Notes under the pieces: model-generated
Database searches by the model: none
What the model was told of the DNA's origin: nothing
What the model saw: the letters and a program-made list of their open reading frames with translations, nothing else
Assembly (NCBI GenBank): GCA_965203555.1
Contig: CBDBCY010000004.1
Location: 544,001-608,000 of the forward strand
DNA: 64,000 bases
Direction: 5' to 3'
Origin: Acidimicrobiia bacterium
GTDB taxonomy: Bacteria; Actinomycetota; Acidimicrobiia; Spongiisociales; ZC4RG35
Position numbers and translations under genes: made by a program
Shown: positions 6,878-17,643 of the stretch, one piece after another
Numbering within the stretch: position 1 is the stretch's first letter
How the letters are laid out: each line of letters opens with the position of its first letter

Positions 6878-7465
6878 TCATCTCCGGGGAGATCGGTAAT
6901 CCGTCCCGGTTGTGATTAGCCTCCACCGCCGCTCGGTGGCCTTGCTGATTCCCACCCTCGGCGTGCTTCTCCATTCCGGAGTCGCCACACCGGAGTCCTC
7001 AAGCCATACCTCCGAACTCTCCCACAACACCAGCCCGTCATGGCGACCTGTCAAACCAAGCGCCTGGGTCAGCTTGCCGGGTCCGTCACACAGATGATCT
7101 TCCCGGCCCCGGCGGGCGATCATGGTTTGCAATCCCCGCTCCGGCACACCACCCCGCAGCAGCACCGCCTGGCCTTCGCCTTCCGGTCCGGTGACCACAT
7201 TGGCGCACCAGTGGACTCCATACGACCGGTACACGTAGAGGGCGCCAGCCCGCGAGAACATGGTGCGGTTTCTACGCCTGGGTCCCACAAATGCGTGACT
7301 GGCGGGATCGTCGGCCCCGCCGTACGCCTCCACCTCGCAGATCAGCACCGAGGTTGTCACCTCCTCGATCCTGGTAACCAGCCTCTTGCCCAAAAGCCTC
7401 TCTGCTACTCCGAGCACCGTTCCGGTGAAATCATCAGTGACCAGACAGCGGGACCCCTTTCCCAT
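6878..7465 (-). CDS. mpg: DNA-3-methyladenine glycosylase (MPG/AAG type)
   Basis: EVEAYGG.DDPASH, YVYRSYGVHWC.NVV, GPGKLTQAL, PRVGIS. Confidence 0.93.
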   Translation of the reverse strand: MGKGSRCLVTDDFTGTVLGVAERLLGKRLVTRIEEVTTSVLICEVEAYGGADDPASHAFVGPRRRNRTMFSRAGALYVYRSYGVHWCANVVTGPEGEGQAVLLRGGVPERGLQTMIARRGREDHLCDGPGKLTQALGLTGRHDGLVLWESSEVWLEDSGVATPEWRSTPRVGISKATERRWRLITTGTDYRSPRR

Positions 7466-11907: not shown

Positions 11908-12696
11908 CTATAGGAGTTTAGAAAGCTCGGCGGCCTGATCAGTACAACCCTGCTTCCGCCCTTCTCGCAGGCGGGAGAGATGGTAGCAGATTATGGCCCC
12001 GGCCGCCGCCGCGTTCAGACTCTCCACCCTGCCCGACATCGGAATTGAGCACCCCAGGTCGGCTCGATCGGCATAGTCGGAGTGGATTCCGTGAGTTTCG
12101 TCGCCGATGACCAGCCACCATGCCCGATCAAAATCGAGCCGGTCCTCTATCTCGGCGAGGGGAAGACCACCCCGGGGAACGGCCGCCACCACCATCGCCT
12201 CAAGCGGGGGCTCGGCGGCCTGGCCGATGGCTGCCCGGAAGTGACCGCCGGCGCCGGCCCGCAGCACTTTGGGCGCCCACGGATCGACCGACGCACCCCC
12301 GGTCGCCACATCCCATCCGAAGGCCGAGGCAGTGCGGATCAATGTGCCGCAGTTGCCGGGTTCGGACACCAGCAGCAAGACTACGTCTCTGCATTCCAGG
12401 TTGCTTTTGGGAATGGTCAACACTCCTACCGGACCACGCGGGTTCCGGGTGCCGGCAATCCGTGACAGGGCTTCTTCGCTAACCGCAGTGACCGGTACCC
12501 CTCGCGGTTCGCAAAGCCTTCGGGTGTGCCGGTCGGAGGGTACGGCCAGCACCTCGGTTATCTCTTGCCCGGTCGCCAGCGCCTCCGCCAGCAGATGCGG
12601 TCCTTCGATCAGCGTCCTCCCGGTTCTCCTCCGTTCACGGGACCGGTGCAGCCGGGCCAGTTCGGCAATCCGGGGATGGCGCCGAGAGCGGATCAA
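11908..12696 (-). CDS. TrmH/SpoU-family RNA methyltransferase
   Basis: [36 protein letters not shown]; TTG start overlaps rplT stop; usual position between rplT and pheS. Confidence 0.9.
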
Positions 12697-13043
12697 GCCT
12701 CTCTGGCGATCTTCACCAACTGGGAAAAGGCATCCGGATCGTGGACCGCCAGGTCGGCCAGGACCTTCCGGTTGACCTCCACTCCAGCCGAGTTGAGACC
12801 TGCCACAAACCGCGAATAGCTCATCCCGTTCTGGCGGGCGGCAGCATTTATGCGAGTGATCCACAATCGCCGGAAGTCGCCCTTACGAGCTCGACGGTGA
12901 CTGTACGAGTCCACCATTGCATGCATTACCTGTTCGTTGGCGGCTCGGAAGGTACGACTGCGGGCACCTCGGTAACCCTTGGCCCGCGCAACCACCCTGC
13001 GGCGGGAACGACGAGCGGAAGGGACGTTCTTTGCTCTTGCCAT
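12693..13043 (-). CDS. rplT: 50S ribosomal protein L20
   Basis: [27 protein letters not shown]. Confidence 0.98.
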
Positions 13044-13860: not shown

Positions 13861-13971
13861 CAAGAGCCTGCGCCAAGCAAAAGAATCCGCTCCCAAGAAC
13901 CACGGCTCACCTGGCGGCGGCCGGGTGGGAAGCAAAACAGCCTCCGCTTCGTATAGCAAGCCGACAGTATA
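13861..13971 (-). promoter_or_regulatory. infC operon promoter and L20-leader-like 5' UTR
   Basis: TATACT -10 at 13971-13966, then AAGCGGAGGC..GCTTCCCACC, similar to L20 leader 5' ends. Confidence 0.5.
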
Positions 13972-13996
13972 ACCCGGCCCGGAAGATTGTCCAAGC

Positions 13997-14701
13997 TCAC
14001 CTTATCTCGGACCGGAGAGCCTCCACCACGGCCCGGGCGGCCTGGGCGCCGGCATTTGCCTCGGGTCTGCTACGGGCCACCGCCTGTTCCCACTCCGAAA
14101 CCGCCAGAACAGCGTTCCCAACCGGAACGCCCGTGTCGATCTGCAGCTGGATCAGGCCCTGGACCGCTCCGTCAACTACGGAGTGGAAGTGGTGAGTCTC
14201 CCCTTGCATGACCACCGCAGTGGCCACCACGCCCTGACACCCGGCCTGGATCAATCGGCTGGCCCCCCAGGGAAGTTCCCATGCTCCTGCGACGTCCAAG
14301 CGGACAATATTCTCTGGTTTAATCCCCATTTCCACCAGCGTCTCACGGGCGCCGTCACCCAGCCGGTCTGCCACCGGGGCGCTGCCCACTTTATCAAAAC
14401 GGGCCATAACCAACCCCACCTTCGGCTCCCTCCGCGCCCAGGGCAACACGATCAGCCATGCCAGTCCAATCACAGAACTGATGAATACGCCGATCCCCGC
14501 CATACCGAACACCAGAAAGAAACTCCATGCCAGATCGTCTCTTACCCACAGCAAGCCCGCCAGCACCAGCACCGAGATACCCAGCCAGATGACAGTGATG
14601 GATATTGCCACCCTTCTATAGATCTCAAAGTTGGGCGACCTGCGGTATCCGAACCCGATGTTGGCCAGACGTCGGTAGAGATCAGTACTTCCCGGAAACA
14701 C
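13997..14701 (-). CDS. ribH: Lumazine synthase with a two-TM N-terminal extension
   Basis: KVGLVMARF, GAWELP, QGETHHF, TGVPVGNAVL, EQAVARS; preceded in frame by two hydrophobic helices. Confidence 0.85.
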   Translation of the reverse strand: MFPGSTDLYRRLANIGFGYRRSPNFEIYRRVAISITVIWLGISVLVLAGLLWVRDDLAWSFFLVFGMAGIGVFISSVIGLAWLIVLPWARREPKVGLVMARFDKVGSAPVADRLGDGARETLVEMGIKPENIVRLDVAGAWELPWGASRLIQAGCQGVVATAVVMQGETHHFHSVVDGAVQGLIQLQIDTGVPVGNAVLAVSEWEQAVARSRPEANAGAQAARAVVEALRSEIR

Positions 14702-14737
14702 AGGACAAAATTCTAGCCGCGATGCCTGTCGGCAGAT

Positions 14738-15514
14738 TCAGAGCCTGCGCCACGTATCCAAAAAATCGCGCACCCCTTCGGCGTGATCCGAACTTGCCGT
14801 CAACTCTCTCCAAATCCGCTCCGTGTCCTGATTGTCGCCTGTCTGGCCTTTAGCCACCATTCTCATCATCTCTTTCATCGACCGCAGGGACGTCTGAGAC
14901 ATGCTGCACACCAGTGCCAAAAGACCGTCGAGCTTCGATTGGAAGGACTGTGGCTCATACAACGCCGACAGGAGCCCGATCCGCAGCGCCCGCTCGGCGT
15001 TGAATACCTCTCCGGTGAACAGCAGCCACTTTGCGTGGGTCTCGCCGACCGCCGCCACCAGAGAGCGCAACGCTGCATACGGGAAGGCCAGCCCAACCCG
15101 GGCGGGGGGAAGACTGAAGCGAGCGGTTTGATCGGCCACCCGTAGGTCGCAGACCATGGAGATCGCCGCCCCGCCCCCCATGCAGACGCCCCGGATGGCA
15201 GCCACCGTAGGTTTTTTCATATCGGCCACCGCCGATATTCCGGCCGTTACCGTCTCACCGTTCTCCACGCCGCTCTCGCCCTGGGACAGGCGCTCCGCCC
15301 ACTCCGCCACATCAGCGCCCGCGCAGAACACGGCGGAATCGGCGCCCCTGATCACCATCACCTTGGTACGGTCGTCCAAGTCGGCTTCCCGGGCCAGATC
15401 GGCCAGTATCGACCACATCTCATCGCTGAAGGCGTTGCGTCTCCGCGGCCGATCAATTATCAGGTGGGCGACTTCGTCTCGGCGCTGCAGGTATAGGGAT
15501 CTTGACTTGCCCAC
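14738..15514 (-). CDS. Enoyl-CoA hydratase/isomerase family protein
   Basis: RRNAF, FCAGAD, CMGGG, CDLR, crotonase fold pattern. Confidence 0.9.
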   Translation of the reverse strand: MGKSRSLYLQRRDEVAHLIIDRPRRRNAFSDEMWSILADLAREADLDDRTKVMVIRGADSAVFCAGADVAEWAERLSQGESGVENGETVTAGISAVADMKKPTVAAIRGVCMGGGAAISMVCDLRVADQTARFSLPPARVGLAFPYAALRSLVAAVGETHAKWLLFTGEVFNAERALRIGLLSALYEPQSFQSKLDGLLALVCSMSQTSLRSMKEMMRMVAKGQTGDNQDTERIWRELTASSDHAEGVRDFLDTWRRL

Positions 15515-16200: not shown

Positions 16201-17643
16201 ATGTCCACACCAGCCGAAGTATCGGCCCTCGCTCAAGAATACGAGTTTGTTGATCTTCGTTTCCCGGACCTGCCGGGGAAGATGCATCACTTCACCATGC
16301 CGTCCAGCTACCTGACCGAAGAGTCCTTCGAGGAGGGCTTCGGATTCGATGGTTCGTCCATCCGTGGCTTCCAGACCATCGAGGAGTCGGATATGCTGCT
16401 CATTCCCGATCCCTCCGTCGCCTTCGAGGATCCTTTCTTCGTGCGCAGCACCCTGGTTGTGAACTGCTTCATCAAGGATCCGATCACCGGAGACTGGTAC
16501 CACAAAGATCCGCGGCGCGTGGCAAGGAACGCCGAGGAGTACCTGCTCTCCACCGGCATCGCCGACACCTCCTATTGGGGTCCCGAAGCCGAGTTTTTCA
16601 TCTTTGACTCCGCCCGGTTCTCCCAGGTCGGTCATCACAGCAACATGTCCTTCTACGAGGTGGACTCCGTGGAAGCCGCATGGAACTCGGCGCAGCAATG
16701 GAACTCGGCGCAGCAGGAAGACGTAGGCAACCTGGGACACAAGATGCGCCACAAGGAAGGCTACTTCCCGGTACCTCCCAACGACACCCAGCAGGACATC
16801 CGTTCAGAGATGGTCGCCCAGATGCTCAAAGTGGGAATTCCCATCGAGATACATCACCATGAAGTGGGAACCGCCGGCCAGGCCGAGATCGACATTCGGT
16901 ATGCGCCTCTGCTTCTGCAAGCCGATCGTTTGATGATCTACAAGTACATCTGCAAGAACGTGGCCAAGCAGGCGGGCAAGACCGTCACTTTCATGCCCAA
17001 GCCCATCTTCTCGGACAACGGTTCGGGGATGCATACCCACCAAAGCCTCTGGAAAGACGGCGTACCGCTATTTTATGAAGAGGGTACCTACGCCAACCTC
17101 TCCGACATGGCCCGCTGGTACGCGGGCGGTTTGATCGCCCACGCTCCGGCCATTCTCGCCTTTGCGGCGCCCGGAACCAACTCCTACCGTAGATTGGTGC
17201 CCGGTTTCGAAGCTCCGGTCAACCTGGTGTACAGCCAGCGCAATCGCTCCGCTGCGATCCGGATTCCCACCTACTCGGAAGCGCCCTCCGCCAAACGGCT
17301 CGAGTTCCGCTGCCCTGATCCGTCCTGCAACCCCTACTACGCCTTCGCCGCCATGCTGATGGCGGGGCTGGACGGGGTTCGCAATCAGATCGAGCCGGGC
17401 GATCCGGTCGATGTGGACCTGTACGAACTGAGCTCCGAGGAAGCTGCCGGACTGAAGACAGTTCCCGGAACCCTGGACGAGGCATTGGACGCCTTGCAAG
17501 CCGACCACGCTTTCCTGACCGAAGGCAACGTATTCTCCCAGGACCTGATCGATACCTGGATCTCCTACAAGCGGGAGAACGAGGCCAGCTTGGTGAGGCG
17601 CCATCCGACCCCGGTGGAGTACGAGCTCTACTACGACATTTAA
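16201..17643 (+). CDS. glnA: Glutamine synthetase type I (GSI-beta)
   Basis: [47 protein letters not shown] adenylylation site. Confidence 0.98.

Follow-up and report, generated by a model that had tools for sequence, protein, structure and literature searches.

A gene for lumazine synthase (RibH) that also encodes two predicted transmembrane helices was analysed in a 64,000-nucleotide stretch of DNA from an Acidimicrobiia bacterium (assembly GCA_965203555.1, contig CBDBCY010000004.1, positions 544,001 to 608,000; hereafter the window). The RibH enzyme and its fold are known; what is new is a conserved two-helix anchor without detectable relatives on the only RibH of a genus of marine Acidimicrobiia not yet in culture. 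On balance, we think that the protein, hereafter referred to as transmembrane RibH (TM-RibH), is an active and probably pentameric lumazine synthase, anchored by its two helices on the cytoplasmic face of the membrane. Lumazine synthase is, in textbook accounts, a soluble pentamer, decamer or 60-mer capsid, and it is widely used as a nanoparticle scaffold.

A preliminary description of the window had pointed out a single open reading frame (ORF) in which two hydrophobic helices run straight into a RibH domain. Pfam and hydropathy analyses and structure prediction agree with it for the 234-residue product. Residues 94-230 matched PF00885 (DMRL_synthase) with an E value of 1.5e-33 and 116 bits, against a Pfam cut-off of 26.7, and the NCBIfam equivalog model TIGR00114 was passed narrowly, at 88 bits against 84.6. 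The 19-residue Kyte-Doolittle mean (KD19) reached maxima of 2.49 (residues ~36-46) and 2.35 (residues ~65-81) and did not exceed ~1.1 in the enzyme domain. An AlphaFold2 (AF2) model built from 44 aligned sequences had a mean predicted local distance difference test score (pLDDT) of 83.7 and contained helices at residues 23-52 and 57-89, coil at 90-94 and a strand at 95-100; pLDDT was mostly above 90 for residues 95-233 and below 50 for residues 1-21. A Foldseek comparison of the model with solved lumazine synthases gave target TM-scores of 0.72-0.85 (E 3.5e-10 or weaker). The best sequence matches among solved structures were the Salmonella enzyme 3MK3 (E 2.4e-17, residues 91-229) and the M. 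tuberculosis enzyme 1W19 (E 3.5e-15, residues 108-231; TM-score 0.85). The archaeal pentameric riboflavin synthase, a RibH paralogue, was considered as an identity for the domain and rejected: TIGR01506 scored 21.5 bits against a cut-off of 100.55, and the genome has a normal two-barrel ribE.

Conservation and selection of the fused frame

The window genome (3.42 Mb, 4 contigs, 95% complete) is accompanied in our collection by 16 further genomes of the genus; the tallies of the search that located the orthologues include the unpublished genomes G027 and G038, on which no sequence-level statement rests. The same stop-free frame was found in 16/16 of them and thus in 17/17 with the window genome. 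Fifteen of the 16 orthologues are 76-91% identical over residues 1-233 or 1-234, and the most distant one matches residues 26-234 at 66%. All insertions and deletions among the 17 genes are in frame: a two-codon indel, a one-codon gap in the clade-specific insertion described below (L004), and deletions in the N-terminal tail of L018, where the 17-gene alignment shows a 19-residue deletion within residues 1-30.

The ratio of nonsynonymous to synonymous differences per site (pN/pS), taken over 120 pairs with L018 excluded, was 0.23 for codons 2-93 (pS 0.59) and 0.18 for the enzyme domain. By part, it was 0.15 for the tail, 0.34 for the first transmembrane helix (TM1) and 0.25 for the second (TM2), at a synonymous divergence of ~0.5-0.6. 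These values show that the N-terminal part is translated and under constraint. We conclude that the upstream 93 codons are under purifying selection and that the fusion is neither a product of chance nor an assembly artefact.

The start codon occupies the same aligned column in the 17 orthologues, being ATG in 3 and GTG in 14. A TANNNT hexamer is located 7-8 nt before it in 17/17, against a background of 0.0019 per position in the same upstream regions. No Shine-Dalgarno-like tetramer is present at positions -19 to -1 of the 17 orthologues, and the sequence farther upstream of the TANNNT box is not conserved among them. Among Actinobacteria it is common for mRNAs to be leaderless and for a -10 box to stand a few bases ahead of their start codon. 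The -10-like box and the lack of a Shine-Dalgarno sequence suggest that the TM-ribH mRNA is leaderless too; the placement of the box, read against this actinobacterial pattern, suggests that codon 1 is where transcription and translation both begin.

Internal in-frame start codons vary among the orthologues: codon 85 is ATG or GTG in 12/17, and at codon 99 there are 12 ATG and 1 GTG (codon 95 is discussed below). Gene callers disagree on the start of the 30 clade proteins found in public sets. These proteins are 202-277 residues long, so no called start falls downstream of TM1. The preliminary description had allowed for a start just before PWARREPK. Selection on codons 2-93, conservation of the start codon and of TANNNT, and the lack of a conserved internal start refute it.

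Predicted membrane hairpin

Basic flanks of transmembrane helices stay in the cytoplasm (the positive-inside rule). By this rule the basic tail and the basic linker after TM2 would place both ends of TM-RibH in the cytoplasm, and with them the enzyme domain on the cytoplasmic membrane face, where its substrates are. The domain would then stand only ~6 residues from the bilayer. The RDD motif of the loop between the helices is kept in 15/17 orthologues, L009 having RDN and L018 RGD. In TM2, G71 and G79 are present in 17/17 and position 75 is S, T or G; the three positions lie on one helix face. Judged from the alignment, this small-residue face suggests helix packing.

Searches for relatives of the hairpin were negative. 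A phmmer search with residues 1-93 in a set of 1.84 billion representative proteins returned nothing beyond the representative of the clade itself. Against Pfam at E values up to 10 they matched DUF2207_C alone (E 9.1), and their best ESM Atlas score, 0.81, was within the range of shuffled proteins; the whole protein had no usable match in the ESM Atlas. A tblastn search with residues 1-93 against 13 loci from outside the genus (ribBA-ribH-infC regions and CMD neighbourhoods) returned chance matches (E 7.3), and residues 1-73 had no match in the RibH loci of sister genera (L019-L021, L042, L045). Hairpin remnants were not revealed either by tblastn of RibD, RibE and RibBA or by blastn of the sister-genus loci against the hairpin DNA (best E 0.08-0.11). 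The idea that relatives encode the membrane part as a separate gene is thus refuted, the part being fused in 17/17 and having no other match in the representative protein set. The earlier proposal of a membrane-tethered RibH made as one protein is supported.

The architecture may be rare. In the literature, as far as the accessible texts go, no natural membrane-bound lumazine synthase was found, only engineered vaccine constructs and ordinary RibH, in agreement with the preliminary description, whose author knew of no described example. The engineered N-terminal fusions on lumazine synthase scaffolds (vaccine nanoparticles) demonstrate that additions are tolerated and assembly is kept, according to the available part of PMC7369331; they are man-made, whereas TM-RibH is natural, under selection and the organism's only RibH. 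In a profile search, the best 120 of 7726 matches consisted of 30 clade members and 90 proteins of 152-170 residues, with no other extended form. We also screened a small Actinomycetota sample, in which 272/301 genomes have a PF00885 match; this tally includes the unpublished genomes G255, G128, G088, G159, G265, G209, G289, G041, G184, G058 and G108, and no sequence-level statement rests on them. Among the matches listed (130 more being unlisted), at least 44 ribH genes lie in open frames of at least 200 codons. A hydrophobic upstream frame was found in 0/37 analysed canonical ribH (maximal KD19 at most 1.15; upstream frames of 33-489 codons), the other 7 of the 44, from unpublished genomes, being excluded. 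As the sample is small, such fusions may well occur in other phyla.

The remaining 29/301 genomes of this sample (all at least 90% complete) have no PF00885 match. They include 6/9 genomes of family f14, which belongs to the same class, and G087, a 99% complete genome from the window's own family. These bacteria are probably riboflavin auxotrophs.

The riboflavin pathway of the genus

PF00885 has exactly one match per genome in 17/17 genus genomes, and the match is always TM-ribH. A second, canonical ribH, which the preliminary description had suggested looking for, was thus not found. The window genome also holds ribD (RibD_C), ribE (two Lum_binding barrels) and a fused ribBA at contig positions ~99.0-101.9 kb, with no RibH-like gene downstream of ribBA. 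TM-ribH is located at ~558 kb, ~456 kb away, which bears out the earlier remark that no other rib gene is adjacent to it. In the genus as a whole, ribBA is kept in 17/17 genomes at 84-93% identity (one copy is cut by a contig end), and in the closed genomes it is far from TM-ribH. No FMN riboswitch was detected in the window and two rib-operon loci, where Rfam gathering scores were reached by 5 tRNAs only.

A second, weak GTP_cyclohydro2 match (E 2.5e-12) was observed outside the window, in a 442-residue open frame on contig 4 of G000 (227850-228281; L026). Counterparts of this frame, 35-37% identical to RibBA, are present in 14/17 genus genomes including its own. The frame may encode a divergent paralogue of the cyclohydrolase II type.

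Active-site residues

The active site was compared between the 17 clade members and 48 canonical RibH (P0047 excluded). The substrate-stacking aromatic at position 102 is F in 13/17 and Y in 4/17 and aligns with F22 of 3MK3. H171 and R210 are present in 17/17 and align with H89 and R128 of the same structure. Phe22, His88 and Arg127 (B. subtilis numbering) are described as conserved and important for catalysis in the available text of PMC12871164. PMC4735121, in its accessible part, adds Lys135 to the key residues; Lys138 there corresponds to Lys135, and we take it to be in the numbering of the M. tuberculosis enzyme. The clade retains 28 of the 42 columns whose conservation among canonical RibH reaches at least 85%. 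The ARF and GETHHF motifs and the phosphate-binding Arg are present as first described, and so are the insertion after ARF, which measures four residues, and the change of NKG to NAG.

TM-ribH is the only PF00885 gene, the other rib genes are kept, the catalytic aromatic, His and Arg are conserved, and the product scores above the PF00885 and TIGR00114 cut-offs and has the predicted fold. For these reasons we take TM-RibH to be the pathway enzyme. The anchored enzyme would condense 5-amino-6-ribitylamino-uracil with 3,4-dihydroxy-2-butanone 4-phosphate and would supply the product, 6,7-dimethyl-8-ribityllumazine, to soluble RibE.

Assembly

In all forms of lumazine synthase the N- and C-termini point outwards, and the five N-termini of a pentamer are on its outer surface (PMC7369331, available part). 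A pentamer can therefore insert its five hairpins, ten helices altogether, into a single bilayer. A closed 60-mer is unable to do so: the N-termini of the capsids point outwards all around (same source), so 60 hairpins cannot share one bilayer. By homology, TM-RibH is probably pentameric, and we expect all ten helices of the pentamer to lie in the same bilayer and no closed 60-mer capsid to form. The predicted structure has no free N-terminal arm ahead of its first strand, such as icosahedral enzymes have; only residues 90-94 lie between TM2 and that strand. Capsid-type enzymes have the motif G(T/G)K(A/H)GN in the loop between the last two helices. TM-RibH lacks it: AGTKAGNKG of 3MK3 aligns with SRPEA-NAG.

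The M. tuberculosis enzyme has the same type I RibH fold, comes from the same phylum, shares the aromatic, His and Arg residues and purifies as a pentamer, according to the accessible portion of PMC13151069. Unlike TM-RibH, it is soluble, ~160 residues long, keeps the Lys and is without the four-residue insertion; TM-RibH has 93 extra N-terminal residues in the form of a membrane hairpin, and its gene is detached from ribBA. The icosahedral 60-mers of Salmonella (3MK3), B. subtilis (1RVV) and Aquifex (1HQK) have the same fold as TM-RibH and are expected to share its reaction.

Locus order and origin of the gene

In three sister genera the gene order is ribE-ribBA-ribH; ribBA and ribH adjoin in 3/3 sister-genus loci, and ribH is located 214-304 bp upstream of infC in 5/5 sister genera. 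In 11/11 named loci of the genus the order is glnA(-) / CMD - [ECH] - TM-ribH - infC - rpmI - rplT - (trmH-like) - pheS, where ECH is an enoyl-CoA hydratase gene. As ribH stands beside infC both in the sister genera and in the genus, ribH did not move and the operon broke directly upstream of it. It follows that the anchor was gained at the site of the operon break.

A quick maximum-likelihood tree was built from 66 RibH domains. The 17 TM forms make one group (Shimodaira-Hasegawa approximate likelihood-ratio test, SH-aLRT, 81) with a stem of 0.99 changes per site and within-group branches of at most 0.18. Together with five sister-genus RibH and P0047, a long-branch row, the group is set apart by a branch with an SH-aLRT of 95. 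These five canonical proteins (L019-L021, L042, L045), the nearest group in the tree, are 40-47% identical to the TM-RibH domain and are encoded at the same position upstream of infC; they differ in that their genes come directly after ribBA, in keeping NKG..E and in being without the insertion. Identity to genomes G021, G022 and G018 is 40-44% for the RibH domain, compared to 66-71% for RibBA and 65-68% for IF3. The tree and these identities fit vertical descent with a burst of change and not replacement by transfer.

We propose that the ancestor had the order ribE-ribBA-ribH-infC and that, on the branch to the genus, the operon broke just upstream of ribH. Left by infC, the gene would have gained a new 5′ end, which provided it with a promoter and a leaderless start and lengthened it by 93 codons. 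Fast change of the enzyme domain would have followed, as the long stem branch, the loss of the Lys/Glu pair and the four-residue insertion suggest. The anchor may be a tolerated by-product of rescuing the stranded gene. It may also help to localise or export flavin intermediates.

Features of the locus

The coordinates of TM-ribH and its parts are collected in Table 1.

Table 1. Layout of TM-ribH and its product in the window
Feature	Window positions	Strand	Remarks and evidence
Whole TM-RibH coding sequence	13997..14701	-	234 codons, GTG start, stop 13997-13999; ORF list and translation
-10-like hexamer TAGAAT	14710..14715	-	8 nt upstream of GTG start; putative leaderless-mRNA promoter
Residues 1-30, basic N-terminal tail	14612..14701	-	6 K+R, 2 D+E; predicted cytoplasmic
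Residues 31-53, transmembrane helix 1	14543..14611	-	KD19 up to 2.49; AF2 helix 23-52
Residues 54-59, RDDLAW, short acidic loop	14525..14542	-	1 K+R vs 2 D+E; predicted outside the cell
Residues 60-88, transmembrane helix 2	14438..14524	-	KD19 up to 2.35; AF2 helix 57-89
Residues 89-94, ARREPK, basic linker from TM2 to first core strand	14420..14437	-	3 K+R in residues 89-100
Residues 95-234, lumazine synthase (RibH) domain	14000..14419	-	PF00885, pLDDT, Foldseek
Residues 105-108, clade-specific four-residue insertion after the ARF(D/N)K motif	14378..14389	-	Alignment with canonical RibH
Residues 217-220, AGAQ: Ala and Gln replace canonical Lys and Glu	14042..14053	-	Alignment with canonical RibH

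The gene for enoyl-CoA hydratase, which separates TM-ribH from the CMD-family gene (window 14738-15514, minus strand), is variable in the genus. It was considered as a functional partner and rejected, being intact in 4/11 genus loci, reduced to three short fragments in L032 and absent from 6. The trmH-like methyltransferase ORF between rplT and pheS (window 11908-12700, minus strand) is 36-47% identical across the genus loci and has no match in L033; flanking genes in the same loci are 81-94% identical. It is either a fast-evolving or a replaced gene.

Just past the ribH stop and upstream of infC, a promoter-like site is present on the minus strand (window 13966-13993): TGGACA, 16 nt, TATACT, with 10/12 matches. 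Its sequence suggests that infC has its own promoter. At 6882-7411 of L032 (OZ253443.1) the infC match is in two overlapping pieces, 6882-7202 and 7199-7411, which suggests a frameshift or an assembly error. In GlnA (window 16201-17643, plus strand) the six residues WNSAQQ occur twice in a row, a direct repeat that looks like an 18-nt tandem duplication.

Alternative explanations

Several observations weigh against an active, anchored lumazine synthase. The orthologues are kin, and counts of the 17/17 type overstate their independence. Among the sequencing runs found to contain the window stretch there was no RNA run. The two other RibH equivalog models, NF000814 and NF009084, scored far under their own cut-offs, and the TIGR00114 pass was only a narrow one. 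Position 217, K in 48/48 canonical RibH, is A in 16/17 clade members and L in 1/17; position 220, E in 45/48 and D in 3/48, is Q in 17/17. In all, 14/42 conserved columns differ in the clade, one of them being a clade gap, and P138A, G162A and T200A are among the changes near the substrate pocket. The insertion that follows the stacking aromatic (residues 105-108) fills, in 16-17/17 clade members, columns that are gaps in 48/48 canonical RibH. These altered columns and the insertion mean that the active site has been remodelled, and activity could be low or altered. The same changes, together with the long stem branch and the detachment of the gene from the rib operon, would fit a repurposed RibH that is not, or only marginally, catalytic and acts as a pentameric scaffold that binds ligands, a sensor or a lumazine- or flavin-binding membrane protein, while lumazine forms spontaneously or by means of an unrecognised enzyme. 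The condensation has been reported to run without enzyme under physiological conditions, which counts in favour of this explanation. Against it, TM-ribH is the sole PF00885 gene of 17/17 genomes that all have ribBA (ribD and ribE being found in the window genome), and the enzyme domain, which keeps the catalytic aromatic, His and Arg throughout, is under strong selection within the genus. Moreover, mutation of the Lys/Glu pair (Lys135/Glu138 in B. subtilis and Lys134/Glu137 in B. anthracis numbering, the Glu coming from the adjacent subunit) is stated in the accessible part of PMC2935281 to affect binding and catalysis of the B. subtilis enzyme weakly. The loss of this pair is thus notable, yet no proof of lost function. 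We consider repurposing unlikely.

It is also against the full-length protein as sole product that codon 95 is GTG, with a purine-rich stretch before it, in 15/17 orthologues; a minor soluble isoform is, therefore, possible. A further explanation holds that an internal start at codon 95 or nearby yields the soluble, catalytic RibH, the full-length membrane form being left to a separate or regulatory function. Codons 90-93 are purine-rich, and at codon 91 only AGR or AAR occurs; the window genome has GGAGGGAG ending 7 nt before the GTG. However, AGR/AAR would also result if Lys and Arg were simply exchanged for one another at a positive-inside anchor. The start is unusable in 2/17 orthologues, L003 having ATA and L006 GTC at codon 95, and the product would begin directly at the first core strand. 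Two such products seem to us quite improbable. It is hardly credible that the 93 codons form no more than an open frame, left untranslated, in a GC-rich genome and that the real protein is an ordinary soluble RibH. GC-rich genomes do carry long chance frames, as the frames upstream of the 37 canonical ribH illustrate, but those stay at or below a KD19 of 1.15, compared to 2.49 in TM-RibH. The low pN/pS of codons 2-93 at a pS of 0.59, the in-frame indels and lack of stops in 17 species, the conserved start codon and -10 box and the lack of a conserved internal start all argue against an annotation artefact.

Habitat and implications

Near-identical DNA was found in 6 runs from 3 studies. Their labels are sponge metagenome, coral metagenome or a coded organism, and the source sample may be among them. 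Titles of related records are MAG Acidimicrobiia, uncultured Acidimicrobiaceae and bacterium OM1. The hosts of the genus appear to be sponges and corals. One could imagine that a ten-helix bundle under the five-fold axis, packed by G71/S75/G79, acts as a conduit or docking site, passing lumazine or riboflavin to an exporter or releasing it, and that the whole is a synthesis-export device that provisions or signals to the sponge or coral host. The evidence for such a device consists of the small-residue face, the pentamer geometry (PMC7369331, available part) and the habitat labels of the DNA runs, and we hold it to be very unlikely.

If the protein is indeed an active, anchored lumazine synthase, this enzyme can work while tethered to a bilayer, in a forced non-capsid assembly. 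TM-ribH would then be a clean example of a gene that was stranded by an operon break and rescued by a new 5′ end (promoter, leaderless start and orphan hairpin), with rapid remodelling of the enzyme to follow. The cellular site at which a vitamin B2 intermediate is made could, more speculatively, bear on the provisioning of the host.

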